Positions 1,248 to 20,506 of a DNA stretch of 21,043 nucleotides are shown here, piece by piece. Source of the DNA: a virus (lineage: Duplodnaviria; Heunggongvirae; Uroviricota; Caudoviricetes). The notes under the pieces are model-generated. The model was not told where the DNA came from. It did not search any database and saw only the letters and a program-made list of their open reading frames with translations. The stretch lies in IMG/VR virus record IMGVR_UViG_2529292726_000020, one strand, 5' to 3'. The position numbers and the translations under genes were made by a program. Numbering within the stretch: the stretch's first letter is position 1; every line of letters starts with the position of its first letter.

Positions 1248-1268
1248 TCTTAACGCGCTTTAAAATCC
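1248..1268 (+). promoter_or_regulatory. Recurrent late-promoter-like motif, copy 1 (tcTTAAcgcgcTTTAAAATCc), about 50 bp upstream of the lysis cassette
   Basis: One of four near-identical elements in the window (see findings). Confidence 0.4.
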
Positions 1269-1317
1269 TTCGCGCCCTGTATTTGTGATGCTGTCTCCAC
1301 CAGATAAGGAGACACAC

Positions 1318-1668
1318 ATGAAAAACCTGAAAAAATTCATTCCCCCTGTTAAAAAACCTCGCCTCAGCGGCTGGCTGCTGACCTCAGTGCTGTTGCTGGG
1401 CACCATCGCTCTGGTCTCACCACAGCAGCTGCCTGTTGTGATCTACAAGCTGGCACTCATCACGCTGGCAGCAGTGCTGGGTTACTGGCTTGACCGTTCG
1501 CTCTTCCCCAAAGCCCGTCCCGGTCAGTACCTGAAACATGACGACAGGCTGATGGCTGAAGGGCGTTTCCCGGTACAGACCGGCCTTCACCTGGTGTTTT
1601 CTGCTGCGTTAATCCGCCGTGCACTGATTGTTGCAGCGGTCTGCCTGGCTGTTGCGATGGGGCTTTAA
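1318..1668 (+). CDS. Putative holin / pinholin-like membrane protein (about 3 predicted transmembrane segments)
   Basis: ATG at 1318 with SD AAGGAG upstream (track ORF starts earlier at 1285). Three hydrophobic stretches. First gene of the lysis cassette, directly upstream of the endolysin. Confidence 0.5.
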   Translation: MKNLKKFIPPVKKPRLSGWLLTSVLLLGTIALVSPQQLPVVIYKLALITLAAVLGYWLDRSLFPKARPGQYLKHDDRLMAEGRFPVQTGLHLVFSAALIRRALIVAAVCLAVAMGL

Positions 1669-1670
1669 TC

Positions 1671-2411
1671 ATGAACTGGCCGCAGATCACCTGGATTGTA
1701 TGCATGTCCCTGAAACTGGCTTTCGAAGCCTTTCGGGTCTTCATCAGAACCGAACGCCTGTCAGTCCGCGCCGGGACCTTTCTGGTTCATATGGCATGGG
1801 TATTCTTTGTCGCAATGTTGCTCTGGTGTGGCGGCTTTTTTAGCCAGGCATGCGCAGCACAACCTCCGCAGGCTGCGCTGCAGTATCGCGATGATGTGAT
1901 CCGTAATGCCCGGCTTGAATGGGGACTGTCTGCGCCGGTGGCCGATTTCGCCGCGCAACTGCATCAGGAAAGCGGCTGGCGACCTGATGCGATCTCGCCG
2001 GCTGGCGCTCAGGGACTGGCGCAGTTCATGCCTGCCACTGCCGACTGGATAAGCCAGTTGATACCGATGCTGAGCAGTCGTGAGCCGTTTAATCCGGCAT
2101 GGGCTATCCGGGCGCTGGTCAGCTATGACCGCTGGCTGTGGCAGCGTGTCAGCGCCGCCAGTGACTGCGAGCGTATGGCCATGACACTGTCGGGCTATAA
2201 CGGTGGTCTGGGCTGGGTACAACGGGACAGGCGGCTTGCATCACAGAAAGGTCTGGACAGCACCCGCTGGTTCGGACATGTCGCCACGGTGAATGCCGGA
2301 CGCAATGCGGCCAGCTGGCGGGAGAACCGCCATTATCCGCAGCGCATCCTGCGCGAACTGGCACCGCGATATCTCACATGGGGAGGCAGCAGTTGTGTGG
2401 CATCTGGTTAA
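1671..2411 (+). CDS. Endolysin, lytic transglycosylase (SLT) family, with N-terminal hydrophobic signal/SAR-like segment
   Basis: SLT catalytic signature LHQESGWRPDAISPAGAQGLAQFMPATA. Hydrophobic segment AWVFFVAMLLWCGGFF at residues ~42-57. Start overlaps the upstream stop. The exact start (1671 vs an internal ATG near 1791) is uncertain. Confidence 0.8.
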   Translation: MNWPQITWIVCMSLKLAFEAFRVFIRTERLSVRAGTFLVHMAWVFFVAMLLWCGGFFSQACAAQPPQAALQYRDDVIRNARLEWGLSAPVADFAAQLHQESGWRPDAISPAGAQGLAQFMPATADWISQLIPMLSSREPFNPAWAIRALVSYDRWLWQRVSAASDCERMAMTLSGYNGGLGWVQRDRRLASQKGLDSTRWFGHVATVNAGRNAASWRENRHYPQRILRELAPRYLTWGGSSCVASG

Positions 2412-3045
2412 AAAGCTGCCGTGGCGCGGCATTCTGCTGGCCATTCTTATCAATGCCTTTCTGGTCGGCCTGTATGCCATGGGATACAGAAGTGGTCATG
2501 ACTCTGCAAAGCGTGACGGTGATACCGCGCTCAGTCAGTTGCAGTCAGCATTTGACGCGTACAAAACGGAGCAGGCAACGCTTGAGAATGCTGCGCTGCG
2601 GGCCTGGGCCAGACGGTATCAGGAGCAGGTGGCCGCCGGGCAGCGGGCTGAAGCCGGTTATCTTGAGCAGATTGCTCAACTGGAGAGCCGGAATAAACAA
2701 CTACAGGGGCAAATTAACGATGTCACACAGCGCTGGATTGATGAAAAAGGTAAGAGCCATCCCATTGAGTGCGTGTTTACTCGCGGTTTCGTGCGCCAGT
2801 ACAACGCCGCACTCGGATATGACAACGCATCCGTCGACACCGGTCATTCAGACTCAGTTGCCGCCGCTGGCACCCGCTCTGGCACAGCGACCGGGCAACC
2901 TGAAACCACTGACACCCGGTTACGCGATTCGGGTGTCTCCCAGCGTGACGTTCTCGCCAACATCATCGACAACGCAGGACAATGTCGTCGCTGGCGGAAC
3001 CAGATAAACGCGCTGCTGGATGAACGGGAAGGATTACAGAAATGA
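2395..3045 (+). CDS. i-spanin (Rz-like): N-terminal TM segment plus coiled-coil periplasmic domain
   Basis: GTG at 2395 preceded by GGGAGG at 2381-2386. N-terminal hydrophobic segment GILLAILINAFLVGLYAMGY followed by a Q/A/E-rich helical region. Track ORF 2293-3045 in the same frame. Confidence 0.6.
   Translation: MWHLVKKLPWRGILLAILINAFLVGLYAMGYRSGHDSAKRDGDTALSQLQSAFDAYKTEQATLENAALRAWARRYQEQVAAGQRAEAGYLEQIAQLESRNKQLQGQINDVTQRWIDEKGKSHPIECVFTRGFVRQYNAALGYDNASVDTGHSDSVAAAGTRSGTATGQPETTDTRLRDSGVSQRDVLANIIDNAGQCRRWRNQINALLDEREGLQK
2741..3007 (+). CDS. o-spanin (Rz1-like lipoprotein) embedded in the +1 frame of the i-spanin gene
   Basis: ATG at 2741 within track ORF 2378-3007. Signal peptide with lipobox-like MKKVRAIPLSACLLAVSC, then a proline-rich mature region (PSTPVIQTQLPPLAPALAQRPGNLKPLTPG). 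Confidence 0.55.
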   Translation: MKKVRAIPLSACLLAVSCASTTPHSDMTTHPSTPVIQTQLPPLAPALAQRPGNLKPLTPGYAIRVSPSVTFSPTSSTTQDNVVAGGTR

Positions 3046-3368
3046 CACTGCAGGTTGAATTCTGGACGGTGGTGAGTTTTCTGCTCACCTTCATGGGGTT
3101 TGTGGGAGGGCTCGCCAAATGGTTGTTCAGTAAAACAGAAGAACGCCAGGCGGCACGATTCGCCTCCCTTGAACAGGCCCTGCAACAATCCGCCTCCAAC
3201 TGGGGCGAGCTGGAAAAAGAATTTATGCGATTTAAAGCGGATTTACCGCTGAATTATGTCCGTCGAGAGGATTATATCCGTGGCCAGACAGTCATTGAGG
3301 CCAAACTGGACGCGCTTTATAACAAACTGGAAGTGGTACAGCAGTACCGCAATACCGGAGGTCAATAA
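3042..3368 (+). CDS. Small membrane protein of the lysis cassette (N-terminal TM segment, C-terminal helical domain); possible lysis accessory protein
   Basis: Track ORF of 108 aa; start overlaps the i-spanin stop (ATGA). TM segment FWTVVSFLLTFMGFVGGLAKWLF. Occupies the position of Mu gp24/gp25. Confidence 0.5.
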   Translation: MTLQVEFWTVVSFLLTFMGFVGGLAKWLFSKTEERQAARFASLEQALQQSASNWGELEKEFMRFKADLPLNYVRREDYIRGQTVIEAKLDALYNKLEVVQQYRNTGGQ

Positions 3369-3679
3369 TGGTCGATATTACCCGAGTACGCCGCGAATCC
3401 CTGCGCTGGAGTCTGCTGGTTGCCCTGAACAAGACCCGCCCTTACACCGCCAGCGAGACGCTGCTGCTGGATGTGTCCCGTGCCATCTACCCGGACACCA
3501 CACCGCTGGAACTGCGCCGCGAACTGGATTATCTGGCTGACCGTAAAATGGTTGAGCTGGAGAAAAAACCTTCTGGTGACTGGTTTGCTGACCTGACCCG
3601 CCTCGGCGTAGACCTGGTGGAATACACCGTGGAATGTGGTCCGGGTATTGCCCGCCCGGAAAAGTACTGGAGTGAATAA
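3368..3679 (+). CDS. Hypothetical phage protein (position of Mu gp26)
   Basis: Track ORF of 103 aa, translationally coupled to both flanking genes. Confidence 0.55.
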   Translation: MVDITRVRRESLRWSLLVALNKTRPYTASETLLLDVSRAIYPDTTPLELRRELDYLADRKMVELEKKPSGDWFADLTRLGVDLVEYTVECGPGIARPEKYWSE

Positions 3680-4224
3680 TGGCCAGACGCAGCACAATAG
3701 AAAAGCTGCCGGAAGACGTGCGCCGCTGGCTTGAACGGGCGCTGACTGAATCCGGCTTCAGCGGGTATAACGAGCTGGAGTCCCTGCTGCGTGAGCGGGG
3801 GTACGTCATCAGCAAATCCGCTATCCATCGCTATGGACAGAAGATTGAGCGCCGCTATGGTGCTATCCGTGCGGCGACAGAAGCGGCCCGCATGCTGACC
3901 GAAGGCGCAGCAGACGATCAGGATGCGCGTTCGGAGGCTGTGATAGCCCTTATTCAGACCGAGCTGTTCGAGAGTATTGTCCAGTTGCAGGAGGCGGAAG
4001 AAGGCGAAGTCGATCCTAAAGAACGCGTGGCCCTGCTGTCGAAGGTGGCGAAGAATGTGGCTACGCTGTCCCGCGCGTCCGTCAACCTCAAAAAGTTCCA
4101 GTCTGAAGTACGGGCCAGAGCGCAGCAGGCAGCCAGCAACGCCGAGAAAATTGCCCGTAAGGGGGGACTGTCAAGCGACGCAGTACAGGCGCTTCGTCGC
4201 GAGATTCTGGGGATTGCCACATGA
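3679..4224 (+). CDS. Small terminase-like protein (Mu gp27 / DUF3486-like)
   Basis: 181 aa with N-terminus MARRSTIEKLPEDVRRWLE resembling Mu gp27-family proteins. Immediately upstream of the large terminase with an overlapping stop/start. Confidence 0.65.
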   Translation: MARRSTIEKLPEDVRRWLERALTESGFSGYNELESLLRERGYVISKSAIHRYGQKIERRYGAIRAATEAARMLTEGAADDQDARSEAVIALIQTELFESIVQLQEAEEGEVDPKERVALLSKVAKNVATLSRASVNLKKFQSEVRARAQQAASNAEKIARKGGLSSDAVQALRREILGIAT

Positions 4225-5816
4225 CAAAATCATCCGGAGTGATTTTAAACGCCGCTGGCGGCGGCCCCGAAGGGATGAGTCCCATGGACGGGAGGAATAA
4301 CCTTGCTCCCGTTTTGCCTGATACCTCGGCGCTGGATGCCCCTCCCGTTCTGTTGCCTTACCAGCAGCGCTGGGTGGCAGACACCTCTCCGCTTAAGGTG
4401 ATAGAAAAGAGCCGTCGTACCGGTATTACATGGGCTGAGGCATCCGATAACGTACTGACCGCCGCCTCTTCTGCGCCAGCAGGCGGGATGAATGTGTATT
4501 ACATCGCTTATAACCAGGACATGACCGTCGAATACATTCAGGCGTGTGCGATGTGGGCACGGGCATTCAACTATGCGGCCAGTGAAATTGAAGAAGGATT
4601 CTGGGAAGAGGACGACGACGACAAACACATCAAGACTTACACCATCAAATTTCCTGACTCCGGCTTTCGTATTGTTGCGCTCTCCAGCCGCCCGTCTAAC
4701 CTGCGTGGCCGTCAGGGTATTATTGTTATCGACGAAGCGGCGTTCCATGAGCAACTGGACGAACTGCTGAAAGCGGCGCTGGCGATGCTTATCTGGGGGG
4801 GAAAGGTACGCGTTATCTCCACCCATGACGGTGACGACAATCCGTTCAATACGCTTATCGGGGATATCCGTGCCGGACGTCAGGGAGGCAGCATACATCG
4901 CATCACTTTCCGGGAAGCCGTATCTGAGGGGCTGTTCCGGCGCGTCTGTCTGCGCACCGGGAAGGAATGGTCGGAGGCATCCGAGCAGGCCTGGATGGCA
5001 TCGGTGTACAAATTCTACGGTGCCGGCGCATCCGAAGAGCTTGACTGTATTCCGGCCAACGGTGGCGGTGCCTGGCTGTCCCGTGCCCTGATAGAGTCCC
5101 GCATGTCCGCTGATACGCCGGTATTGCGTCTGACCTGCAAGGAAGGTTATGAACTGCTGTCTGATGAGGTTCGCTTCCGCGAGACGCAGGACTGGCTTGA
5201 TGAGTATCTGAAACCATTGCTGGAGGCACTCCCCACTGATGCCCGCTCTTTCCTGGGGCGCGACTTTGGCCGTAGCGGTGATTTGTCGGTGGACTATCCC
5301 CTGCTGCAGGAGAAGAACCTGGTACGACGCGTGCCATTCGTACTGGAGCTGCGTAACGTGCCGTTCAGACAGCAGGAGCAAATCACCTGGTATCTGATGG
5401 ATGGCCTGCCCGGTCTGCTGGGTGCAGCGTTTGATGCCCGTGGTAATGGTGCCTATCTGGCTGAATACGCCATGCAGCGCTACGGCTCCAGCCGGGTTCA
5501 GCAGGTGATGCCAACCGAAGGCTGGTACCGGGAGCATATGCCTCCGGTCAAAGCTGCACTGGAAGACGGTAACCTGGTGGACTTACCAAAGGATGAAGAC
5601 ACACTGGATGACCTGCGGGCCGTTCAGGTGGTGAACGGTGTCCCCCGCGTACCGGAGCAACGCTCAAAAGCAAAGGCTGACGGTGGTAAACGCCACGGGG
5701 ATTCAGCCATCGCACTGGCGCTGGCGTATTTCGCCAGCCGTGAAATTAACAAAGGGCCGGTGAAGGCAAGCTCACGCCGTCGTCGTCAGGCGGCCCGTAT
5801 GCTGGAGGGATTCTGA
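4221..5816 (+). CDS. Terminase large subunit (Mu gp28-like)
   Basis: 531-aa ORF in the canonical position between small terminase and portal, with an acidic patch typical of terminase ATPase/nuclease proteins. Confidence 0.85.
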   Translation: MTKSSGVILNAAGGGPEGMSPMDGRNNLAPVLPDTSALDAPPVLLPYQQRWVADTSPLKVIEKSRRTGITWAEASDNVLTAASSAPAGGMNVYYIAYNQDMTVEYIQACAMWARAFNYAASEIEEGFWEEDDDDKHIKTYTIKFPDSGFRIVALSSRPSNLRGRQGIIVIDEAAFHEQLDELLKAALAMLIWGGKVRVISTHDGDDNPFNTLIGDIRAGRQGGSIHRITFREAVSEGLFRRVCLRTGKEWSEASEQAWMASVYKFYGAGASEELDCIPANGGGAWLSRALIESRMSADTPVLRLTCKEGYELLSDEVRFRETQDWLDEYLKPLLEALPTDARSFLGRDFGRSGDLSVDYPLLQEKNLVRRVPFVLELRNVPFRQQEQITWYLMDGLPGLLGAAFDARGNGAYLAEYAMQRYGSSRVQQVMPTEGWYREHMPPVKAALEDGNLVDLPKDEDTLDDLRAVQVVNGVPRVPEQRSKAKADGGKRHGDSAIALALAYFASREINKGPVKASSRRRRQAARMLEGF

Positions 5817-7303
5817 TGGCGAGGGGTATCTGGGTTTCACCCGATGAATTTGTTGCTTTTTCTGAGCCTCAGAAATCACTGACCGCGCAGATTGCCTCCC
5901 GCAGCCGCGCGATCGACTTTTACGGACTGGGCATGTATCTGCCCAATCCTGATCCCATTCTCAAGGCTCAGGGACGGGATATCCGTATCTACCGCGAACT
6001 GCGCACCGACCCGCTGGTCGGAGGCTGTATCCGCAGACGTAAAGCAGCGCTCAAATCGCTGGAGCGTGGACTGGAGCGCGGTCACGCTTCTGCCCGGGTC
6101 TTCCGTTTCATCCGCGACATGCTCGACGATCTGGATCTGTCCCGCATCATCGGTGAGATGAGTGATGCCGTGCTCTACGGGTATCAGCCCTGTGAAATCA
6201 TGTGGGGCCGTTCGGTCAGGGCGTGGGCAGTGACGGATATTGTCGGCAAACCGCCTGAGTGGTTTCAGTTTGATACGGACAACTGCCTGCGCTTCCGGGC
6301 GCGTGATGCGGGTGTGGAGGGTGAGCTGCTGTCACCGTCAAAATTCGTGGTGCCGGCACAGGATGCCTCGTATGACAATCCTTACGGTTTCCCGGACCTG
6401 TCCATGTGCTTCTGGCCGGTCGCCTTCAAGAAAGGCGGGATGAAATTCTGGCTCCGCTTTGCCGAAAAGTTTGGCTCCCCGTGGGTGATCGGTAAGCACC
6501 CGAGGGGTGCAAATGATGCAGAGATTGAAAAACTGCTGGACTCCATGGAGCAGATGGTGGAGGACGCTGTGGCCGCCATCCCCGATGACAGCAGCATTGA
6601 ACTCAAAGCCGCGGATGGCAAGGCGGACAGCAGCGAGGTATTCCGCGAGCTGATCACGCTGTCACGCAGTGAGATCTCCATTGCATTACTCGGTCAGAAT
6701 CAGACCACTGAAGCGAACAGTAACAAGGCCTCTGCACAGGCCGGGCTGGAGGTGACGGCTGATATCCGCGATGCGGATGCGGACATCATTCAGGCGGCAG
6801 TGAATCAGGTCATCAGAACGGTGGTCACCCTGAACTTCGGCGATGTGCCGTGTCCGGTCTGGGCCATGTGGGAACAGGAGGCCATTGATGACACCCGTGC
6901 CACCCGCGACGAAAAACTCACCCGCGCGGGACTACGCCTGACCCCGCAGTACTTCATGCGGGAGTACCAGCTGCAGGAGGGGGATATTGACCTCTCTGAT
7001 GCACCGGTTGCGGACGGGGCAGTGCCTGCGGAGTTTGCCGAGGCGATAAGCGCCGATCATGATGCACAACAGCAGCTTGACGACGCGCTGGACATTCTGA
7101 TGAACGGAGGTGTGTTAAATGGCACGCTGGAACCCGTCCTGGCACCTCTGTTCAGGCGGGTCGAAAACGGGGTTAACCCGTCTGAGCTGCTGGGCGAACT
7201 GGCGGAGCTCTACCCTCAGATGAACACGGACGATCTGCAGGAGCGGCTGGCCCGCTATCAGGGTACGCTTCAGCCACTGGCACAACAGGAACTGAGAGGA
7301 TAA
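5816..7303 (+). CDS. Portal protein (Mu gp29 / DUF935 family)
   Basis: 495-aa ORF following the large terminase with ATG overlapping the upstream stop. Size and position fit a DUF935 portal. Confidence 0.85.
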   Translation: MARGIWVSPDEFVAFSEPQKSLTAQIASRSRAIDFYGLGMYLPNPDPILKAQGRDIRIYRELRTDPLVGGCIRRRKAALKSLERGLERGHASARVFRFIRDMLDDLDLSRIIGEMSDAVLYGYQPCEIMWGRSVRAWAVTDIVGKPPEWFQFDTDNCLRFRARDAGVEGELLSPSKFVVPAQDASYDNPYGFPDLSMCFWPVAFKKGGMKFWLRFAEKFGSPWVIGKHPRGANDAEIEKLLDSMEQMVEDAVAAIPDDSSIELKAADGKADSSEVFRELITLSRSEISIALLGQNQTTEANSNKASAQAGLEVTADIRDADADIIQAAVNQVIRTVVTLNFGDVPCPVWAMWEQEAIDDTRATRDEKLTRAGLRLTPQYFMREYQLQEGDIDLSDAPVADGAVPAEFAEAISADHDAQQQLDDALDILMNGGVLNGTLEPVLAPLFRRVENGVNPSELLGELAELYPQMNTDDLQERLARYQGTLQPLAQQELRG

Positions 7304-7305
7304 CA

Positions 7306-7764
7306 ATGGCTTCCGATAACCTGGTCAGTATCACCATTAACGATAAATCCCTGCGCCGGAGCCTCCGTGCGCTGGATCTTGCTGCCACAGACCTGGAGCC
7401 CGCGATGCGCAAAATCGCCGGAACCCTGCTGGCGGAAACACAGTTTAACTTTCTTGATGAGGGGCGTCCGGGGTGGATGCCCTCGCTGGCAGCGGAAGAA
7501 CGTGACGGGCAGACACTGCAGGATACCGGGCGTCTGATGGGGTCAGTATCAACCGACCATGACGACCGGCAGGCTGTTGTGGGGACCAACGTTGTTTACG
7601 GTGCCATTCACCAGTTCGGGGGTAAAACGGGGCGTAATGAGTCTGTTGAACTTCCGGCCCGCCCGTTCCTGCCGGTGACGGGGGATGGAGAACTACAGCC
7701 TGAAGTGGTAATCCCCATCCTCGATACCATTGTCCGCCATCTTGAATCAGCGGCCCGTCGCTGA
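7306..7764 (+). CDS. Virion morphogenesis protein (Mu G-like)
   Basis: 152 aa with conserved-looking AIHQFGG..ELPARPFL segment. SD GAGAGGA upstream. Confidence 0.65.
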   Translation: MASDNLVSITINDKSLRRSLRALDLAATDLEPAMRKIAGTLLAETQFNFLDEGRPGWMPSLAAEERDGQTLQDTGRLMGSVSTDHDDRQAVVGTNVVYGAIHQFGGKTGRNESVELPARPFLPVTGDGELQPEVVIPILDTIVRHLESAARR

Positions 7765-7778
7765 GTTTTCTCTCTTCA
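7746..7778 (+). terminator. Candidate intrinsic terminator at the end of the first late operon (stem TCAGCG/CGCTGA, then GTTTTCTCTCTTC)
   Basis: Inverted repeat overlapping the stop codon of the G-like gene, followed by a T-rich tract and a 214-bp intergenic gap. Confidence 0.4.
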
Positions 7779-7903
7779 GGCGGGTGATTTATCATTGCCA
7801 GCGAATGAGGGGCTGTATTACCTTTATAAAGGCTTTACAGCCTCTGTTTTATAACCGCCTCCGGTTCACCGCATTGCTTTCCCTGTCCTTCTCCCCTGAT
7901 GTT

Positions 7904-7926
7904 TTCTAAAGCAGATTAAAATCGCC
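7904..7926 (+). promoter_or_regulatory. Recurrent late-promoter-like motif, copy 2 (tcTAAAgcagaTTAAAATCg), about 53 bp upstream of the protease/scaffold gene
   Basis: See findings; the most divergent of the four copies. Confidence 0.35.
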
Positions 7927-7978
7927 GGGCCTGCATTTCTCACAAACTGTCTCCGACAACATAACGCGGGACAGCAAA

Positions 7979-9094
7979 ATGTCAGCCATTCACATTTTTA
8001 AAGCCGGTACTCATACCGATATGCACGGCAAAAAACTGCCGTTCACGCCAGACGATCTTGCCGCCTGCGTGAAAGCCTATGACCCGTCCGTCCATGAAGC
8101 ACCACTCGTGATTGGTCATCCCAGAACGGAAGACCCGGCGTGGGGCTGGGTGAAAGCCCTGTCGCTCAGCGGCGTCGATCTGATGGCAGAGCCTGCCCAG
8201 CTGGACCCGCAGTTTGCTGAGATGGTCACCGACGGACGATTCAAAAAAGTGTCCGCCTCTTTCTACCTCCCGGATTCACCGTCCAATCCGAAGCCCGGCG
8301 TGCTCTACCTTCGCCATGTGGGCTTTCTCGGGGCACAGCCACCTTCCGTCAAGGGGCTGAAACAGGTGTCCTTCAGTGAGCAGGAAGAAGGTGTGGTGGA
8401 GTTCGCCGACTGGCAGGCCATCACGAATGCCTCCCTGTGGGGAAAGCTGCGCGATTTTCTGATCGCCCGCTTCAGTCTGGACGAGGCAGAAAAAGTCCTG
8501 CCGGAATGGCAGCTCAACAGTCTGCGCGAAGAGGCGTACCGCGACACACTGTCGCAGGATGCAGCAGGTGCACAATTCAGTGAGACAGGCCCGGGGCCGT
8601 CTTCCGCAAGTAACGAGGAATCATCGATGACAAAAGAAGAGATTGAAGCCCTTCAGGAGGAGAACCGCCGCCTGAAGCAGCAGGCTGCTGATCGCGATGC
8701 GCGTGATGCACAGGTCAGACAGGAGCAACTGCATAAGGACAATGTGGCCTTTGCAGAAAAACTGGTCGCAGAGGGCCGTCTGGCTCCCCGCGCCTCCTCC
8801 GTGGTGGTTGCCCTGCTGGATGCCGTCGCCGGTGGCGACAAGCCGGTGGAGTTTGCTGAGGGGGAAAGCCGCACACCGCTGGCCACCGCCTTTCGTTCAT
8901 TGCTCTCCGACGGGGAGCCGGTGATGAATTTCGCCGAACAGGCCACAAAAGAGCGTGTCGGCGACACGGTGAAGGTGGATGTGGCAGAGTTTGCGGAAGC
9001 CGATCCTGAGCGTCTGGCCCTGCATCAGAAAGCAGTGGCCCTGTCCAAAAAAGAAGGCATCAGCTATGAGGCTGCTGTCGCACGCTGCCTGTAA
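7979..9094 (+). CDS. Head maturation protease / scaffold (Mu I-like)
   Basis: 371 aa. N-terminus (MSAIHIFKAGTHTDMHGKKL..) resembles Mu-like I proteins. The C-terminal third is a charged coiled-coil typical of scaffolding domains. Confidence 0.8.
   Translation: MSAIHIFKAGTHTDMHGKKLPFTPDDLAACVKAYDPSVHEAPLVIGHPRTEDPAWGWVKALSLSGVDLMAEPAQLDPQFAEMVTDGRFKKVSASFYLPDSPSNPKPGVLYLRHVGFLGAQPPSVKGLKQVSFSEQEEGVVEFADWQAITNASLWGKLRDFLIARFSLDEAEKVLPEWQLNSLREEAYRDTLSQDAAGAQFSETGPGPSSASNEESSMTKEEIEALQEENRRLKQQAADRDARDAQVRQEQLHKDNVAFAEKLVAEGRLAPRASSVVVALLDAVAGGDKPVEFAEGESRTPLATAFRSLLSDGEPVMNFAEQATKERVGDTVKVDVAEFAEADPERLALHQKAVALSKKEGISYEAAVARCL
8627..9094 (+). CDS. Candidate nested in-frame scaffold protein (Mu Z-like) from internal start
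   Basis: In-frame ATG at 8627 (MTKEEIEALQEENRRLKQQ..) preceded by GAGGA at 8615-8619. Covers exactly the coiled-coil C-terminal domain. Confidence 0.35.
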   Translation: MTKEEIEALQEENRRLKQQAADRDARDAQVRQEQLHKDNVAFAEKLVAEGRLAPRASSVVVALLDAVAGGDKPVEFAEGESRTPLATAFRSLLSDGEPVMNFAEQATKERVGDTVKVDVAEFAEADPERLALHQKAVALSKKEGISYEAAVARCL

Positions 9095-9108
9095 TTTAAG
9101 GAGAGAGC

Positions 9109-10062: not shown

Positions 10063-10071
10063 GGAGGCGTT

Positions 10072-10410: not shown

Positions 10411-10411
10411 C

Positions 10412-11322: not shown

Positions 11323-11573
11323 TGAAAGAATACCGCTATTCCGGCCCGGCCAGCGGCGTCACGCTGTCGGACGGAACCGAAATCCTGCTCTGGCCGGGGA
11401 AGACGGTTTCCCTGCCGGAGGAGCATGACTACGTGAAGGTACTGGTGGCGCTGAAACATCTGACGCCGGTACCTGAAGAGACTAAACCCGCCGGCACACC
11501 GGCTGTGCAGTCACCAAAGCGCAGAAGCAGCAGTGACAGCGAAGTGAAAACGGAGGACACCCATGGCAGCTAA
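11322..11573 (+). CDS. Hypothetical small phage protein (position of Mu gp38)
   Basis: ATG at 11322 overlapping the upstream TGA (track lists the GTG at 11319). GAGGAA upstream. Confidence 0.45.
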   Translation: MKEYRYSGPASGVTLSDGTEILLWPGKTVSLPEEHDYVKVLVALKHLTPVPEETKPAGTPAVQSPKRRSSSDSEVKTEDTHGS

Positions 11574-13511: not shown

Positions 13512-13513
13512 CG

Positions 13514-13795
13514 GTGAGTGTTGAACTGACGGATAAAGGAGGACGATGTGCGGCACTGGGCATGTCAAATGGTACGTGGTTTACCCTCCTTGATATTCCG
13601 GGGGTGGAAACCCTTTTTAATACCCGTAAAACCAATGACCCGATTGACTGCACACGTTCAAAGGCCCGCAAACTGGCGGATTTGATTGAAGCATGGGAGC
13701 CTCCCGACCACTGGTTCTCCGGCACCGGCAAATCTGAGGGAAAGACGCTTCTCATCGCTTTCCTGCGTAACTGCAAGGGGTTTCGCACTTGCTGA
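13514..13795 (+). CDS. Hypothetical protein inserted between tube and tail chaperone (possible moron)
   Basis: Track ORF of 93 aa starting at a GTG (alternative ATG at 13562). Cys-containing, no family recognised. Followed by a hairpin plus T-tract. Confidence 0.4.
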   Translation: MSVELTDKGGRCAALGMSNGTWFTLLDIPGVETLFNTRKTNDPIDCTRSKARKLADLIEAWEPPDHWFSGTGKSEGKTLLIAFLRNCKGFRTC

Positions 13796-13801
13796 CATCA
13801 C

Positions 13802-13830
13802 AGGGGCTCCGGCCCCTTCTTCTTAATCTC
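13802..13830 (+). terminator. Candidate intrinsic terminator (stem AGGGGC/GCCCCT, loop TCCG, then TCTTCTT)
   Basis: GC-rich inverted repeat at 13802-13817 followed by a T-rich tract, directly after the 13514-13795 ORF and just before motif copy 3. Confidence 0.4.
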
Positions 13831-13841
13831 CTTTAATATCC
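13818..13841 (+). promoter_or_regulatory. Recurrent late-promoter-like motif, copy 3 (tcTTAAtctccTTTAATATCc), about 52 bp upstream of the tail chaperone
   Basis: See findings. Confidence 0.4.
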
Positions 13842-13892
13842 GTCACGCGCTTCTCCCGACATACTGCCCTGAACTTACACAGGAGCACAATC

Positions 13893-14228
13893 ATGTCACA
13901 GACCCCATCCGATACTTTTAAATTGTCTTATCCCTTCACCACTGCTGCAGGCACCAGAATTGAGCTGGTTGAACTGAAACGCCTGACGGTAAAAGACCTG
14001 AAGCAGGTGCGCAAAATCAGCAAAAACCCGGCAGACTGGGACGAACCGCTGATTGCCCGCAGTACTGGTCTTCTCCCGGAAGATCTCGACAATATGGATC
14101 TGGCTGATTACCTGCAGTTACAGAAACGATTTCAGCTCATCACGGGGATGGGTGAGAGCAACCAGGGCGCTGACGCAGGCGCAGGGGCTGCTGGCGAGAT
14201 GGTTCCGGTTTCAGCCGGGGGAGATTGA
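13893..14228 (+). CDS. Tail assembly chaperone (P2 gpE / lambda G analogue)
   Basis: 111 aa with SD AGGAG, directly upstream of the tape measure. Gly/Ala-rich low-complexity C-terminus. An overlapping ORF (14053-14310) has no start of its own. Confidence 0.7.
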   Translation: MSQTPSDTFKLSYPFTTAAGTRIELVELKRLTVKDLKQVRKISKNPADWDEPLIARSTGLLPEDLDNMDLADYLQLQKRFQLITGMGESNQGADAGAGAAGEMVPVSAGGD

Positions 14229-14310
14229 TGCCCTCGATACTGACGATCTGGAGATGTGGCTGGAGCAGGCTGAAGAGCAAATAAAAAGCGAGTACGGCGA
14301 CAAATCATAG
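13893..14310 (+). CDS. Predicted frameshift fusion product of the tail chaperone (E+E'-like), requiring a +1 shift
   Basis: Track ORF 14053-14310 is in the +1 frame relative to 13893-14228 and encodes a protein-like acidic helical segment (..ARWFRFQPGEIDALDTDDLEMWLEQAEEQIK..). A G5 run at ~14217-14221 is a possible slip site. Confidence 0.4.
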
Positions 14311-14385
14311 TACAGACAGCCGCCAGTAGCGGCTGTTCTGCGTTATCCCCTCACGTCTTTTCACCTTCCCCGGAGGTTAACCACT

Positions 14386-17274
14386 ATGTCGGGACAGTTT
14401 TCAGTCGGCGTTGTTATCGGCGGGATGATTGGTAGCACATTCCGTTCTGCAATGAGCGGTACCCGCCGTGCGCTTGATTCCCTGAGCGATACCTCACGCC
14501 GCCTGCAGGAACGTCAGAACGCTTTAACCCGTGCAACAGAACGTTATGGTCAACTGGGTTCTTCCCGGATGCAGCATCTCAACAGCGAGCTGCTGCGGGT
14601 AAGCCGCACCATGGAGCAAATTGAGCGCCAGCAGCGCCGTCTGTCAGCGGCATCCGCTACCAGTGATGCGCTGAAAGCTAACCGCATGGCGCTGTATGGT
14701 CAGGGGATTGAAGCGTATGGCATGGCACAGACTGTTTATCATACGGTTTCCCCTGCCGTTCAGCAGTCCATGTCTTTTCAGGACAAAATGATTGATATGT
14801 CGATCACCGCAAAATATGACAATAAAACGCGGGATGCACTTGCCGGACAGATAAAAGGCTGGGCGCTTAAATACAATCAGTATCAGGATGAGCTGCAGGA
14901 GGCGGTGGGTTCACTCATCAGCGACAATATTGATAATGTGTCAGATATCGGTTTTCTGATGCCGGATATTGCCCGCGCGGCAACGGCAACACGCACGTCT
15001 GCTCAGGACTGGGCAAAAGTGGCCGCAGTCTGGCAAAACTCCCTGAAAGGTGCGGCCAGAGATTTTGGTGCCGTTCAGAATATTATGGCTTATGCCGGTG
15101 ACCAGGGGTCATTTGAAATCCCGGATCAGGTCAAGTGGATGCAGTCCCTGGCCCCAATGATGGCGGGTATTGCCAGTGGAAAAGAGGCTGTTGCTGAAAT
15201 CGGGGCCAGTCTCCAGATAGCAAAAATCGGTGCAGGTTCCACCGACGAAGCAGCCAATAATTTTAAAAACTTTCTTACCAAAATTTTTGCCCGCGATACT
15301 CAGAAACAGTTTGCTGATCTGGGTATTGATTTGCAGGGATCTATTGCGAGTTATAAAGCTGCGGGGATCTCTCCGATTGAAGGGATGTTGAGTGTTATAG
15401 AACGTTACCTCAATGCCAAAAGCCCCGAAGCGCTGGCCGGCTTCAAATCAGCCATGAAAATAAAGAATGATACGGCAAGAGATGAGGCACTTCAGGCTCT
15501 GGCGAAAAACTTTGGTCTGGGCGATATGTTCGCGGATATGCAGGTCATGGCATTTATCCGCCCGATGCTGGCCAACATGGACAGATATCGAGAGATCCGT
15601 GCCGGTGCTCTCAGGGCTGCGGATAACGATTTGCTTGCCAGTGCTTATGATCAGCGGCTGAAATCTCCCCTTGAAGCCACTAAAGCACTTATGGTCAGCA
15701 GTCGCGATCTGGCAATTACGCTGGGCGATCAATTAGCTCCATCTTTTATTTCTCTGACTCAGGAACTGCTTCCACTCATTCAGGGGGCAAAACACTGGGT
15801 AGCGACTCACCCGCAATTTGTCAGTGGGGCTTTTAAGCTCATCAGTGCGCTCCTTGCGATTAAGATAGCGACTGTTGGTCTCAAACTGGGGCTGAATCTC
15901 CTTATTTCCCCCTTTGTAAGTGTCTGGAAAAATGCTGTTTTACTTCGGGCCAACTGGCTTCGTCTGTCGCTCGCACTGGGGCAAGGCGGTAAGCTCCGCT
16001 GCTGGCTGGTTCGCGGAATTATGCTCGCCGGTCGTGCTGTTCTCTGGATTGGACGTGCGCTGATGATGAATCCCATCGGTCTCGTTATCACCGCTGTCGC
16101 GGCAGCAGCTTACCTTATCTACCGCAACTGGTGGGCAGTCAGTGGCTGGTTTAAACAGCGCTGGGCAGACATTCAGGAAGCCTTTAACGGCGGCATTGTG
16201 GGAATTGGTAAGTTGCTGATTAACTGGTCGCCGGCAGGCCTGCTCTATAAAGCCTTTGCGGCTGCGCTGAAATATTTCGGCGTTGCTCTGCCGGCAAAGT
16301 TCACCGACTTCGGTGGCCATCTTATCGACGGTCTGATTAACGGTATCAAAAACAAATGGGGGTCGCTCAAATCCAGTGTAACCGGAATGGGTGACAGCAT
16401 CAGTAGCTGGTTTAAACAGTGCTGGGCTGACATTCAGGAAGCCTTTAACGGCGGTATCGCGGGAACTGGTAAGCTGCTGATTAACTGGTCGCCGGCAGGT
16501 CTGCTCTATAAAGCCTTTGCAGCTGCGCTGAAATATCTTGGTGTTGATCTGCCGGCAAAGTTCACCGACTTCGGTGGCCATCTTGTCGACGGTCTGATTA
16601 ACGGTATCAAAAACAAATGGGAGTCGCTCAAATCCAGTGTAACCGGAATGGGTGACAGCATCAGTGGCTGGTTCAGCGAAAAGCTGGGCATTCATTCGCC
16701 GAGTCGCGTGTTTATGGGCTTTGGTGACAATATCGCGCAGGGGGCCGCCATTGGCCTGCAGCGGACCACTCCGCTTGCAGCTCTGGCCGGGCAGCGAATG
16801 GCCAGTGAACTGCTCCCCAAAATGCCCGTGAGCATTCAGGGGCCAGAAATACGGGATAACACTTCAGGTGTTCGCTTCAGTATGCCGTTGCCCGATATCA
16901 ACGGGTTTATGTCGTCTGCTAAAAATGCGATCGGAGCCGTAATCAATAGTTTGTCTTCCATGCCCGCTATCCCGCTCTCCACCCGGGCATCGATTTTACC
17001 AGGGCAACGTCTGGCAAATGAGATGACACCGGATGTTCCCCGTATCCCCTCGCCTGAAATCATGGCTGCCGGATATTCAGGCCGTGGTGCAGCTGCAACC
17101 GGCGGTGGAACGTCTGGTGGTATCCAGGTCAGCTTTAATCCTCAGTTTTTCCTCAATGGCAGGGAAACCGCAGCGCCTGCCGGGCTGACTGGCGCCCTGA
17201 ATATGAGCCTGCATGAGCTGGAAAAAATGCTGGAGCGTCTGCTGGCTCAGAAACAACGTAAGGAGTACAGCTGA
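14386..17274 (+). CDS. Tail tape measure protein
   Basis: 962 aa with SD GGAGG. N-terminal coiled-coil, central hydrophobic segments, Gly-rich C-terminus. Standard position after the chaperone. Confidence 0.9.
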   Translation: MSGQFSVGVVIGGMIGSTFRSAMSGTRRALDSLSDTSRRLQERQNALTRATERYGQLGSSRMQHLNSELLRVSRTMEQIERQQRRLSAASATSDALKANRMALYGQGIEAYGMAQTVYHTVSPAVQQSMSFQDKMIDMSITAKYDNKTRDALAGQIKGWALKYNQYQDELQEAVGSLISDNIDNVSDIGFLMPDIARAATATRTSAQDWAKVAAVWQNSLKGAARDFGAVQNIMAYAGDQGSFEIPDQVKWMQSLAPMMAGIASGKEAVAEIGASLQIAKIGAGSTDEAANNFKNFLTKIFARDTQKQFADLGIDLQGSIASYKAAGISPIEGMLSVIERYLNAKSPEALAGFKSAMKIKNDTARDEALQALAKNFGLGDMFADMQVMAFIRPMLANMDRYREIRAGALRAADNDLLASAYDQRLKSPLEATKALMVSSRDLAITLGDQLAPSFISLTQELLPLIQGAKHWVATHPQFVSGAFKLISALLAIKIATVGLKLGLNLLISPFVSVWKNAVLLRANWLRLSLALGQGGKLRCWLVRGIMLAGRAVLWIGRALMMNPIGLVITAVAAAAYLIYRNWWAVSGWFKQRWADIQEAFNGGIVGIGKLLINWSPAGLLYKAFAAALKYFGVALPAKFTDFGGHLIDGLINGIKNKWGSLKSSVTGMGDSISSWFKQCWADIQEAFNGGIAGTGKLLINWSPAGLLYKAFAAALKYLGVDLPAKFTDFGGHLVDGLINGIKNKWESLKSSVTGMGDSISGWFSEKLGIHSPSRVFMGFGDNIAQGAAIGLQRTTPLAALAGQRMASELLPKMPVSIQGPEIRDNTSGVRFSMPLPDINGFMSSAKNAIGAVINSLSSMPAIPLSTRASILPGQRLANEMTPDVPRIPSPEIMAAGYSGRGAAATGGGTSGGIQVSFNPQFFLNGRETAAPAGLTGALNMSLHELEKMLERLLAQKQRKEYS
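16147..16668 (+). repeat. In-frame tandem duplication, 2 x 261 bp (2 x 87 aa), inside the tape measure gene
   Basis: Copy 1 16147-16407 (WFKQRWADIQEAFNGG..GMGDSISS) and copy 2 16408-16668 (WFKQCWADIQEAFNGG..GMGDSISG) differ at 8 of 87 residues. The duplicate antisense ORFs 16245-16433 and 16506-16691 are also offset by 261 bp. Confidence 0.9.
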
Positions 17275-17819
17275 TGTTTGCCGTACTGGGTGATATTGAG
17301 TTTGAACTGATTACCTACTGGGACGGCTTCGAGGCCACGTTTGGCGTCGATTATGCGGAGCATGCCCGCATCGAGGGTAAACCCGGCCTGCAGTTCGTCG
17401 GCGACAGGCTGGACGAAATCCAGATAACTCTGGTTTTCCATCAGCATTATTGTGTACCCGATGTGGAGCTGGCGAGAGTGCGAACAGCCATGAAAGCCCA
17501 TCAGGCACTGGCGCTGGTCTTCGGCAACGGTGACTATCGCGGCTGGTTCGTGATTACCGATGTGACCGCAACCAGCGAGCAGACAGACAGCACCGGTAAC
17601 GTGCTGGCTGTCAGTGCCACCGTGTCTCTCCGGGAATACACCGGTGATCCGAAAAATCCTCTGCAACCGCCGGCAATACGCACGAAGTTCCCGGTGCCGG
17701 GGCGGTCTCCGGTGCCATTCCATCACCTTCAGGGGTGGCGCAGTTCATCCGCAACGGCGTCAACTATGCGAAACAGGCGCAGTCTGTACTCCAGACCACT
17801 ATCAGCGCCGTTCGGGTGA
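17274..17819 (+). CDS. Tail protein, P2 gpU-like / N-domain of Mu-type DNA-circulation protein; C-terminal ~55 aa look out of frame
   Basis: N-terminal ~125 aa (MFAVLGDIEFEL..GLQFVGDRLDEIQITLVF..GWFVITDVTAT..VSLREY) fit the gpU-like pattern. The rest is Pro/Arg/Ser-rich and unlike protein sequence. Confidence 0.55.
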   Translation: MFAVLGDIEFELITYWDGFEATFGVDYAEHARIEGKPGLQFVGDRLDEIQITLVFHQHYCVPDVELARVRTAMKAHQALALVFGNGDYRGWFVITDVTATSEQTDSTGNVLAVSATVSLREYTGDPKNPLQPPAIRTKFPVPGRSPVPFHHLQGWRSSSATASTMRNRRSLYSRPLSAPFG

Positions 17820-18157
17820 CACAGAAAATGAAGGATAACCCCGTTGTCGCACTGACCCGTGTGCCGGGGCTGATGAGCGGACTGGGTAATATCTCCGGGG
17901 CTCTGGGGAAAAGTGTTCCGGCGTTTAACGCACTCTCTGAATCCATGCCCGATGCCATCAGTCTGGCCAGAACAGCCAGCGAAGCAGCCACGTATGTACA
18001 GCAGGCACAGTCTGCGCTGAGTGGTGTGGACAAAAGAAATATTGCAGGTGCTCTGGATACCGTTTCCGGGCAGCTTAACGCCGCCGGCACAGCATTCAAC
18101 CGCATGTCTCCGGGATTAAGTGCAATGGCCGCCAGAATACTGACGAGGAGTGTGTGA
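17735..18157 (+). CDS. Tail protein fragment; probable downstream part of a frameshift-split gene
   Basis: 140-aa ORF in the -1 frame relative to 17274-17819. Its GTG has no spaced SD. The frame is open back to 17648. Confidence 0.45.
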   Translation: MAQFIRNGVNYAKQAQSVLQTTISAVRVTQKMKDNPVVALTRVPGLMSGLGNISGALGKSVPAFNALSESMPDAISLARTASEAATYVQQAQSALSGVDKRNIAGALDTVSGQLNAAGTAFNRMSPGLSAMAARILTRSV

Positions 18158-18369
18158 TGTTTCTTGAACATGTTACCCGTGATGGAGAGCGCTGGGATTC
18201 GCTGGCATGGCAGTACTACGGTGACCCGCTGGGCTATCCCCGGATTATTGCCGCCAATCCGCACGTGGCCATCACGCCGGTGCTGCCCTCCGGGCTGTTG
18301 TTACTGATCCCGGTGATTGAGACTGAAGAAGCCCGTACAGAAGAGGATATTGCCCCATGGCTGAGATAA
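18157..18369 (+). CDS. Tail protein X-like (LysM-like domain, P2 gpX family)
   Basis: ATG at 18157 overlapping the upstream TGA, SD GAGGAG. Sequence ..WDSLAWQYYGDPLGYPRIIAANPHV.. fits the gpX pattern. Confidence 0.65.
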   Translation: MFLEHVTRDGERWDSLAWQYYGDPLGYPRIIAANPHVAITPVLPSGLLLLIPVIETEEARTEEDIAPWLR

Positions 18370-19511
18370 ACAGCACTGCGCAAGTCACATCAGCGTTAAC
18401 CGGCGTCAGCGATGTGCTGACATCGGTGTTCACTCTGTGGTATCTGCAGAAAAACATCACCTCTGATATCGCGCCTTATGTCACCCGTGTGACCTGGAGC
18501 GATAACATCAAAAATGAGTCCGATACCATTGAGGTGGAGCTGGACGACACCGATGGCCGCTGGCTGGATAAGTGGTATCCGGGCAAGGGTGACACGCTGA
18601 CGCTGAAAATGGGCTATCAGGGCGAGAAGCTGCTGTCCTGCGGTACGTTCTCTATAGACGAGATCGAAGTGAGTTCGCCCGCTTCCGTTGTTTCTATCCG
18701 TGGGGTGGCCACCTCGGTTAACAGTGCCCTGCGGACTAAATCCAGTCGTGGTTTTGAGAACACCACGCTGGCAGCTGTTGCGGGGCGGATTGCCAGAAAG
18801 CACCGACTGAAACTGGTGGGCAGCATTGAGTCCATCAGAATCGACCGGGTGACCCAGTATGCTGAAACCGACGTGGGTTTTCTGCGCCGGCTGGCCAGCG
18901 AGTATGGTTATGCAGTGAAAGTGGTCAGTGACCAGCTGATTTTTTCTCATCTGGCCACACTGCGCAGTCAGGAGACGGTCAGGCAGTTAAAACCGCAGGA
19001 TGTGGCCCGCTTTTCCCTGCGTGACACCATCAACCGGGTCTATAAATCTGCAAAGGTAAAACACCAGAAAAGCAGCAGTAAAAAACTGATCGTCCACGAA
19101 GCTGATGGTGGTACCCGTGAAAGCGACAAAAAGCTCAAAGGTGGTAAGGTTACCAGCGCTGACTCACTTAAAGTTAACAGCCGCGTCAGCGACCCGGACA
19201 GTGCCCGGATTAAAGCGGATTCAGCACTGGCCAGACATAACGAATACCAGCAGAACGGCTCCCTGACGCTGACGGGAACACCTCAACTGACAGCAGGCAA
19301 CAAAATTGAACTGGTGGGTTTTGGGCAGTTATCCGGGCCATGGCTCATAACCACTGCCCGCCATGCGTTTGACCGTAACAGCGGCTACACCACAGAGCTG
19401 GAAGTGGCACGGGGGCCAGTCACAAGAGGGAAAAAACAAAAAACTCAGAAACTCACGGTTTATCACCCGGATGGCAGTACATCGACGGTGATTAAGGAGA
19501 AGAAAAAATGA
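18357..19511 (+). CDS. Baseplate hub protein (P2 gpD / Mu gp44-like, late control D family)
   Basis: 384 aa in the expected position after gpX-like and before the spike. Confidence 0.8.
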   Translation: MAEINSTAQVTSALTGVSDVLTSVFTLWYLQKNITSDIAPYVTRVTWSDNIKNESDTIEVELDDTDGRWLDKWYPGKGDTLTLKMGYQGEKLLSCGTFSIDEIEVSSPASVVSIRGVATSVNSALRTKSSRGFENTTLAAVAGRIARKHRLKLVGSIESIRIDRVTQYAETDVGFLRRLASEYGYAVKVVSDQLIFSHLATLRSQETVRQLKPQDVARFSLRDTINRVYKSAKVKHQKSSSKKLIVHEADGGTRESDKKLKGGKVTSADSLKVNSRVSDPDSARIKADSALARHNEYQQNGSLTLTGTPQLTAGNKIELVGFGQLSGPWLITTARHAFDRNSGYTTELEVARGPVTRGKKQKTQKLTVYHPDGSTSTVIKEKKK

Positions 19512-20104
19512 CTGGTGTCACTCGTCAGGTCGGTACGGTCAGTGCCGTTGATGCCGACAGGGTTCAGGCCCGCGTTCGTCTGCCTGAATGCGATAACCTG
19601 CGCACAAACTGGCTTAACGTGCTGCAGCGTAATACCCAGGATAACAAAGATTACTGGCTCCCTGACGTGGGGGAGCAGGTTGAGGTGCTGCTCGATGCCA
19701 ACGGCGAGGATGGTGTTATTCTGGGCGCGGTGTACTCAGACGTCGATAAACCACCGTTCAGTGACAAAAATATCCGGGGAACCCGGTTTGCTGATGGTGC
19801 AGAGTACAGCTACAACCGGAAGACGCACACTCTGACCATCCGGGGCGGCATTGAGCATATTGTCATTGAGTGTGGTGCTGATGTGGTATTGAAAACACAG
19901 AAAGCCACGATTGACGCACCGGAAACCGAACTTACCGGAGATCTGCGTGTCAGGGGAAAGCTGATTTACGAAGGAGGCATGGCGGGTTCTGGTGGTAAAG
20001 GTGTTACCGCGACCATCCATGGCAATATCGAGATTAAAGGGAATGCCCATGCCACGGGCAGTATGCTGTCTGATGGCGAAAACTCCAGCCACCACTCCCA
20101 CTGA
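19508..20104 (+). CDS. Baseplate spike protein (P2 gpV / Mu gp45-like)
   Basis: 198 aa with SD AAGGAGAAG. OB-fold-like N-terminus and Gly-rich C-terminal region typical of gpV-type spikes. Confidence 0.8.
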   Translation: MTGVTRQVGTVSAVDADRVQARVRLPECDNLRTNWLNVLQRNTQDNKDYWLPDVGEQVEVLLDANGEDGVILGAVYSDVDKPPFSDKNIRGTRFADGAEYSYNRKTHTLTIRGGIEHIVIECGADVVLKTQKATIDAPETELTGDLRVRGKLIYEGGMAGSGGKGVTATIHGNIEIKGNAHATGSMLSDGENSSHHSH

Positions 20105-20106
20105 GC

Positions 20107-20128
20107 TTCTTAAACGCCTTTAATATCA
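20107..20128 (+). promoter_or_regulatory. Recurrent late-promoter-like motif, copy 4 (tcTTAAacgccTTTAATATCa), about 31 bp upstream of the W-like gene
   Basis: See findings. Followed by a 7-bp GC hairpin (20141-20158) abutting the ATG. Confidence 0.35.
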
Positions 20129-20158
20129 GCGTTCCCGCACGGGGGCAATACTGCCCCC

Positions 20159-20496: not shown

Positions 20497-20506
<10 letters not shown>
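20159..20506 (+). CDS. Baseplate protein (P2 gpW / Mu gp46-like, GPW_gp25 family)
   Basis: 115 aa; position and size fit gpW-type proteins. Confidence 0.8.

Follow-up and report, generated by a model that had tools for sequence, protein, structure and literature searches.

A TTAA-N6-TTAA operator at four predicted activator-dependent late promoters of BcepMu-type prophages

We analysed a 21,043-nucleotide stretch of DNA (IMG/VR record IMGVR_UViG_2529292726_000020; hereafter the window), which sequence comparison identifies as late-region DNA of a transposable prophage of BcepMu type (Bcepmuvirus) in an Escherichia coli chromosome, cut at its left edge by IS1 and at its right edge by IS100. 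Four intergenic copies of one short element lie in it, upstream of the genes for a holin, a head maturation protease, a tail assembly chaperone and a gpW/gp25 baseplate wedge protein, and very probably they are the operators of activator-dependent late promoters. Each promoter would consist of an A/T-rich dyad of 14–16 bp (TTAA-N6-TTAA, its half-sites spaced by one helical turn), followed by a 3' extension, an unconserved 19-nt spacer and a weak -10 element of the type nAnnCT. The evidence supports assigning these promoters to a known kind, the Mor/C-type activator-dependent late promoters, with the TTAA-N6-TTAA operator as their distinct feature.

The putative operator and its -10 element

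A search with TTAANNNNNNTTAAWATC, allowing at most one mismatch, returned exactly four matches in the window, all of them on the plus strand, against 0.02 expected by chance, and none of 100 dinucleotide shuffles reached four. The copies share the form TTAA-N6-TTAAWATC, that is, a dyad TTAA-N6-TTAA whose half-site centres are 10 bp apart, plus a 3' extension WATC. They end 50 nt (holin), 55 nt (head protease), 52 nt (tail chaperone) and 31 nt (gpW) before the respective ATG. An earlier reading of the sequence alone (the sequence-only reading) had pointed to the same four sites, and its coordinates, sequences and distances to the next gene were all correct. Its consensus held in so far as four copies do share an element, but the 19-mer as it had been written down recovers three sites at up to two mismatches, and the dyad form fits better. 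The operators, the -10 hexamers with their predicted starts, and the terminator-like structures next to them are as follows.

1250–1267, plus strand: operator 1 (TTAAcgcgctTTAAAATC) of the lysis-operon late promoter; relatives have it ahead of their holin genes as well
1287–1292, plus strand: -10 hexamer GATGCT of promoter 1, placed by the fixed 23-nt spacing and by A and T at positions 2 and 6; predicted start 1299
7906–7923, plus strand: operator 2 (CTAAagcagaTTAAAATC), head-operon late promoter; one mismatch, CTAA for the first TTAA
7943–7948, plus strand: -10 hexamer CAAACT of promoter 2, the same as the hexamer of Mu PI; predicted start 7955
13823–13840, plus strand: operator 3 (TTAAtctcctTTAATATC), late promoter of the tail chaperone and tape measure genes
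13860–13865, plus strand: -10 hexamer CATACT of promoter 3; predicted start 13872
20110–20127, plus strand: operator 4 (TTAAacgcctTTAATATC), late promoter of the baseplate and tail-fibre genes
20147–20152, plus strand: -10 hexamer AATACT of promoter 4; predicted start 20159
7747–7843, plus strand: two terminator-like hairpins with T tracts (7747–7764 and 7830–7843), which close the preceding unit before operator 2
13802–13817, plus strand: hairpin AGGGGCTCCGGCCCCT resembling an intrinsic terminator, with TCTTCTT after it and operator 3 immediately downstream; the best-scoring terminator-like site of the window

The last two entries agree with the sequence-only reading, which had placed a hairpin with a T tract ahead of copies 2 and 3.

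For a comparison with relatives, 68 independent prophage loci from about 60 species were collected from one-genome-per-species bacterial assemblies, with a conserved head-tail adaptor gene from the centre of the late region as the anchor, and five phage genomes were added. The 68 loci (1.30 Mb) were scanned on both strands with a matrix for which only the four copies of the window were used. Of the 132 plus-strand matches, 125 fell in the 130-nt intervals ahead of the genes for holin, head protease, tail chaperone or gpW, which make up 1.0% of the search space; the 44 minus-strand matches were mostly the mirror reading of the same palindromic sites. The weight-matrix search that the sequence-only reading had proposed thus finds the motif almost exclusively at four syntenic late-operon starts, and it rejects an equal motif frequency in coding sequence. 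The four positions are kept in Enterobacterales, Pasteurellaceae (including a prophage of H. influenzae), Pseudomonas (TCTTTAAACYCGATTAAAAGCC), Burkholderia, Chromobacterium, Pandoraea and others, and the flanking proteins in relatives with the conserved motif are merely 40–50% identical. Outside these positions, Pasteurella phage AFS-2018a carries a fifth strong operator match (30286–30303, minus strand, 27 bits), which is oriented oppositely, sits between two tail genes and has no proper -10 (ATTGCT). Klebsiella phage KP12 has an operator-like sequence of 21 bits on the late strand (441–458), within a DNA invertase gene and without a -10, which is probably a chance occurrence.

Information content was computed per position for 116 unique sites that had been chosen on the operator alone. 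It is high over TCTTTAAA ... GaTTAAAAgC, with T2, A3, A4, T11, T12, A13, A14 and A16 conserved at 99–100% and two invariant tetramers flanking a G+C-rich 6-mer. It drops to about zero across the 19-nt spacer after the operator and rises again at A39 (114 of 116), C42 (99 of 116), T43 (114 of 116) and G44 (84 of 116). The -10 hexamer nAnnCT lies exactly 23 nt past the dyad, and its -11A and -7T, the two -10 positions that are essential for sigma-70, are each conserved at 98%. Starts were predicted 7 nt after the hexamer, which sets the dyad centre at about -42.5 (with 8 nt, at -43.5); the commonest bases at the expected -1 and +1 (motif positions 49 and 50) are C and A. Two start codons lend independent support to this prediction: the gpW ATG never departs from motif position 50 (38 of 38 unique relatives), and in beta-proteobacterial relatives the protease open reading frame begins at an ATG at position 50 or 51 (16 of 16), usually just after an in-frame stop.

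The place of a -35 hexamer is occupied by the 3' extension, W-A-T/G-C. A scan for sigma-70 consensus promoters (TTGACA-like -35, 16–18 bp spacing, TATAAT-like -10, at least 9 of 12 matches) gave 8 matches in the window against 10.0 ± 3.4 in shuffles and none at the four sites, where the best -35 candidates match 0–3 of 6 positions. The claim that no copy has a good sigma-70 -35 hexamer was thereby borne out.

Relation to Mu and the predicted activator

In phage Mu, the binding site of the activator C is an imperfect dyad of 16 bp with its centre at -43.5; all four late promoters possess a -10 hexamer and lack a -35, and the bases just 3' of the dyad are of importance as well (PMC2582627). Mu oligonucleotides that include 20 nt past the mapped starts place these starts 7–8 nt after the hexamer (PMC4461284). 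The same start rule puts the dyads of the window at -42.5 to -43.5, and their predicted architecture is therefore that of Mu C/Mor promoters with a different half-site sequence. In the Mu sequences, Pmom reads TTAT-N6-ATAA, 24 nt and TAAGAT, PI reads ATAA, 24 nt and CAAACT, and Plys reads ATAA, 24 nt and TAGACT; the four Mu -10 hexamers (TAGACT, CAAACT, TATCCT and TAAGAT) have a flavour like nAnnCT. The two systems have in common four late promoters per genome, an nAnnCT-type -10 without a -35, two A/T tetramers 6 bp apart and 23–24 nt before the -10 with a centre at about -43, conserved bases directly 3' of the dyad, and an activator of the Mor/C family (PF08765), which is predicted in the present case. 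Furthermore, the first two promoters are syntenic with those of Mu, before the lysis genes and between a G-like gene and an I-like protease gene. They differ in the half-sites and the extension (TTAA/TTAA followed by WATC here, TTAT/ATAA followed by CCCC in Mu) and in the activator, which is only 27–30% identical to Mor or C and has a different recognition helix. The BcepMu-type phages also have a single Mor/C paralogue each and no middle step, their promoters 3 and 4 precede the tail chaperone and gpW genes instead of P and mom, and their gpW transcript is predicted to be leaderless, unlike in Mu.

The Mor-dependent Mu promoter Pm likewise has a dyad centred at -43.5 and no usable -35 (PMC2582627; bioRxiv 10.1101/2025.05.02.651988). 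The promoters described here resemble it in both respects and in the protein family of the predicted activator, but Pm is a single promoter that drives the C gene, whereas here structural and lysis operons are served. As in the Ogr/Delta systems of P2, 186 and P4, four late promoters would depend on an activator and drive P2-like tail genes (V, W, J, I, H); the P2 activator, however, is a zinc-finger protein and not a member of the Mor/C family. An Ogr-type dyad TGT-N12-ACA (at about -55) is absent from the 77 nt upstream of each -10 through the hexamer at all four sites.

No Mor homologue is encoded in the window according to tblastn, and intact relatives carry one, in agreement with the sequence-only reading, which had put the activator gene outside this stretch. 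Escherichia phage PhiKM, KP12, BcepMu and Pasteurella AFS-2018a have one Mor-family gene each (PF08765, E 1e-41 to 1e-43), and Komp_PAO1_1 has one gene that was assigned by its annotation as 'late transcriptional activator' and its alignment with the other homologues. In BcepMu-type genomes the gene stands at the end of the early operon. In PhiKM it occupies 20740–21129, and E. coli AR_0015 has the Mor gene as well as the late region. These homologues are 43–94% identical to each other and share the above 27–30% with both Mu Mor and C; the PhiKM protein is as far from C (PDB 9l0x, E 3.5e-9) as it is from Mor (1rr7, E 3.8e-9). The KP12 protein is annotated as 'DNA-binding protein rdgB'. RdgB of Pectobacterium, a Mor homologue that activates pectin lyase and carotovoricin genes, belongs to the same family, which we take as a lead only; a literature search returned no operator sequence for RdgB.

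All five homologues have in common the beginning of the recognition helix, VS(L/M)Q(W/F)(V/I)Y. A 26-nt matrix built from 107 related sites detects exactly four strong late-strand sites each in PhiKM, KP12, Pasteurella AFS-2018a and Komp_PAO1_1, whereas in BcepMu just the gpW site passes the threshold. The helices of Mu, B3 and RcapMu are different (TFNT, SQPQ, TEDW, SQRH), and the same matrix finds no such sites at their late-operon starts. This co-variation of motif and recognition helix is correlative support for the Mor homologue as the predicted cognate binder.

In our model, intact relatives express the activator from the distal end of their early operon. The phage's one Mor/C-family protein would bind the dyad as an oligomer, with its helix-turn-helix domains in two adjacent major grooves, and the bound activator would replace the missing -35 contact and recruit or activate sigma-70 RNA polymerase, as modelled on Mu C at Plys, PI, PP and Pmom. 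As only one Mor/C paralogue is present, the cascade would lead from early to late expression without the Mor-to-C middle step of Mu. Activator binding, activator dependence and the exact start points are what we infer from these comparisons. A Mu-like late-promoter logic with a different operator had been the central proposal of the sequence-only reading, and the positional specificity, the fixed -10, the missing -35, the Mu geometry and the Mor gene in relatives all argue in its favour.

It seems improbable that these are real promoter parts whose A/T-rich dyad works without a Mor-family protein, for instance as an UP-like element for the alpha C-terminal domain of RNA polymerase or as a site for a GemA-like, IclR-like or nucleoid protein. 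Such a reading can draw on the fact that binding by the Mor homologue is deduced and that relatives encode other conserved early regulators, but the geometry equals that of the Mu C sites (PMC2582627), and the motif is confined to phages with the VS(L/M)Q(W/F)(V/I)Y helix and absent from Mu, B3 and RcapMu. An UP element would suit an A/T-rich motif at -36 to -49, where such elements sit. However, the conservation consists of two invariant tetramers around a G+C-rich 6-mer and shows no A/T tract, and a constitutive, UP-driven holin/endolysin promoter would kill the lysogen. We consider it very unlikely that the element is a conserved non-promoter signal at operon boundaries, such as part of a terminator or processing site, or a structural or recombination site. 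Sites 2 and 3 do lie directly after terminator-like hairpins, with the T tract of 13802–13817 running into the motif, and inverted repeats are found just 3' of every copy; yet there is no upstream plus-strand unit that site 1 could terminate, and the motif is strictly oriented with the late genes. Moreover, the invariant -11A/-7T hexamer stands at exactly 23 nt, a spacing that would be meaningless for a terminator, and the start codons of gpW and of the beta-proteobacterial protease fall exactly on the predicted +1. A chance or compositional artefact would have nothing beyond the shortness of the motif to recommend it and has a probability close to nil, being refuted by four copies where 0.02 are expected and by the syntenic conservation in relatives whose proteins are 40–50% identical.

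Several points weigh against the preferred reading as activator-dependent late promoters. The -10 hexamers are weak (3–4 of 6 matches), the first half-site of site 2 is CTAA and not TTAA, and the UP-compatible position of the motif counts here as well. Three of the four BcepMu sites deviate (GTAA/CTAA ... TTAAAAGA, and a degenerate tail-chaperone site), and two extra matrix matches without a -10 lie away from operon starts (KP12 458; Pasteurella 30303, minus strand). Finally, the co-variation of motif and activator covers nine genomes only, and the searchable literature yielded no experimental transcription start, footprint or reporter data for this phage group. It also yielded no description of BcepMu-type late promoters or of their operator, although the BcepMu genome paper (J Mol Biol 2004), which may hold a prior description, was outside its reach. 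The IHF consensus (WATCAANNNNTTR) was compared by eye with the WATC extension and does not fit, and Rfam gave no match in the window at the gathering threshold.

Leader inverted repeats and predicted leaderless starts

In every one of the four leaders, an inverted repeat overlaps the -10/+1 region. At sites 1–3 the 5' arm covers about -8 to -1, and the first gene has its Shine-Dalgarno sequence within the 3' arm.

1292–1314, plus strand: TGTCTCC (1292–1298) / GGAGACA (1308–1314); the 5' arm precedes the predicted start, the 3' arm includes the holin Shine-Dalgarno sequence
7947–7974, plus strand: CTGTCTCCG (7947–7955) / CGGGACAG (7967–7974); 5' arm at -8 to -1, 3' arm with the protease ribosome-binding site
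13865–13887, plus strand: TGCCCTG (13865–13871) / CAGGaGCA (13880–13887); the 3' arm contains the Shine-Dalgarno sequence AGGAG
20141–20158, plus strand: GGGGGCA-atac-TGCCCCC; the -10 AATACT lies in the loop and the 3' arm, and the repeat ends 1 nt before the ATG

In the protease leader, covariation supports the pairing: 92.7% of cells were paired compared to 35–52% in slid controls, none of 500 shuffles reached the score, and five of the eight pairs showed compensatory changes. The tail-chaperone leader retains four consensus pairs, few because loop lengths vary, and one of them is compensatory. The holin hairpin is conserved without compensatory changes and is therefore uninformative on structure versus sequence. 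At gpW the arms vary by taxon with pairing kept (GCGGC/GCCGC, GCCCTG/CAGGGC, GGCCCAT/ATGGGCC, ACCCTTG/CAAGGGT); here an anchored stem search was used, as a column-wise consensus fails when the 5' arm slides with loop size (4–6 nt) between taxa. Minimum free energy z-scores were clearly negative for the holin and gpW regions and, over all taxa, mixed for the protease and chaperone classes. In these leaders, P(unpaired) came to 0.72, 0.45, 0.65 and 0.90, compared to 0.25, 0.18, 0.41 and 0.33.

In 38 of 38 unique relatives, the gpW ATG follows the -10 by 6–7 nt, at the predicted +1, and no Shine-Dalgarno sequence or purine-rich tract precedes it. The gpW mRNA is consequently predicted to be leaderless, and so is the protease mRNA of beta-proteobacterial relatives. 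In BcepMu (18811–18865), the annotated start of gp32 (18850) falls within the predicted -10, and translation probably begins at an ATG located 12 nt further downstream. Among the few E. coli sources of leaderless genes, one article (PMC4633059) cites P2, by way of a paper on the late promoters of that phage (Christie and Calendar 1985). Mu PI shares the inverted-repeat layout of the leaders in the window, with a hairpin CTGCTCA/TGAGCAG and the mapped start inside the 5' arm. In P2, the leaderless gene is V.

It may be speculated that a translation gate for the first cistron is built into late promoters of this phage group and into Mu PI, a proposal that we hold tentatively and that is at present rather doubtful. 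RNA reading through from upstream would fold the hairpin and stay untranslated, RNA begun at the activator-dependent promoter would lack the 5' arm and be translated, and at gpW and the beta-proteobacterial protease the hairpin would end at -1 with the AUG at +1. If this were true, each late operon would depend on firing of the Mor-type activator for any expression of its first cistron. The layout recalls the fold-back inhibition of IS10/Tn10, where the 5' arm also lies upstream of the element's own start, so that only read-through RNA sequesters the ribosome-binding site. This protection of IS10 from outside transcription was reportedly described by Davis, Simons and Kleckner in 1985. Unlike in IS10, the predicted arrangement is found here at phage late operons and is combined at gpW with a leaderless start. 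Alternatively, the inverted repeats could terminate the upstream unit or stabilise its 3' end, or they could simply represent a G+C-rich discriminator.

A related structure was observed in the tail-chaperone leader of Pasteurellaceae (AFS-2018a 22241–22334 and other loci), where a hairpin AAACTCCTTAATG...CATTAAGGAGTTT followed by a T run resembles an intrinsic terminator and overlaps with its 5' arm the -10/+1 region of the late promoter. Upstream transcripts would stop at this hairpin, and promoter-initiated ones would lack the 5' arm.

The prophage remnant and implications for the family

The window is 98.8% identical to PhiKM, which is classified as Bcepmuvirus, and about 85% identical to KP12 and Phi06_2974 B. 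Gene identities in the window were checked with PHROGs and Pfam.

1–407, plus strand: 3' end of IS1, at which the prophage breaks off on its left side; the early region, including the activator gene, is missing
1318–1668, plus strand: holin, first gene of the lysis/terminase/portal unit (PF13272, E 1e-41; phrog_1528)
1671–2411: SLT endolysin
5816–7303: portal
7306–7764: Mu G-like gene
7979–9094, plus strand: Mu I-like head maturation protease/scaffold, which opens the head and tail-sheath unit (phrog_976, E 2e-163)
13893–14228, plus strand: P2 E-like tail assembly chaperone, which opens the tape measure/baseplate-hub unit (PF10109, E 5.5e-21)
19508–20104: baseplate spike V
20159–20506, plus strand: gpW/gp25 baseplate wedge gene (PF04965)
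From 20497: baseplate J-like gene, interrupted by IS100
20698–21043, minus strand: IS100 (IS21 family; end of the istB gene), which interrupts the baseplate J-like gene

Positions 408–1317 of the window are 100% identical in the intact prophages of 97 genomes. Among complete E. coli genomes, its IS1 junction is common only to strain 510016, where IS1 adjoins a host WGR-domain pseudogene and metG and the early region has therefore been lost. The window itself begins within IS1, and from this related strain it appears that its upstream region, too, was replaced by IS1. In strain 510016, IS100 lies in the small-terminase gene and the F-like gene is kept; the shared IS1 junction together with the different IS100 position indicates related yet different remnants.

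Further changes were noted in the remnant. At 7247–7258, about 800 bp are absent relative to PhiKM (3583–4381) and strain 510016, a second prophage defect that takes out the Mu F-like head morphogenesis gene and the final portal codons; the flanking blastn alignments overlap by 9–12 nt, perhaps reflecting microhomology. The tape measure gene (14386–17274) contains a 261-bp (87-codon) in-frame tandem duplication at 16139–16673 with copies that are 93% identical, and alignments to PhiKM and 510016 fragment across this repeat. The gene has 3213 nt in strain 510016, longer than in the window, where it encodes 962 amino acids. Beside the lysis promoter lies a divergent gene (711–1187, minus strand; phrog_3787, annotated 'ABC transporter ATPase') of 158 amino acids, compared to 242 in PhiKM. 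This short version and a 60-amino-acid open reading frame (491–673, plus strand) are 100% identical in 97 genomes, which indicates a common variant and not damage by IS1.

Since the activator gene is absent from the window, its promoters should stay silent as long as no second prophage provides this protein. The prophage family is present in 572–640 of 5,426 complete E. coli genomes (about 11%) with up to three copies per genome, and the Mor gene also reaches up to three copies in some genomes. It is therefore plausible that intact copies activate defective ones in trans. The family is widespread in Enterobacterales, Pasteurellaceae, Pseudomonas and Burkholderiales as well.

For this family, the operator/-10 signature would allow late operons and transcription starts to be annotated directly and start codons to be corrected, as proposed for BcepMu gp32. 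It would also predict which defective prophages a resident relative can still switch on in trans. The operator and its predicted activator would constitute a second, sequence-distinct operator/activator pair of the Mor/C family, which may be compared with the new cryo-EM complexes of Mor and C and might find use as an orthogonal expression switch. If confirmed, the embedded hairpins and leaderless starts would represent a compact coupling of translation to promoter choice.

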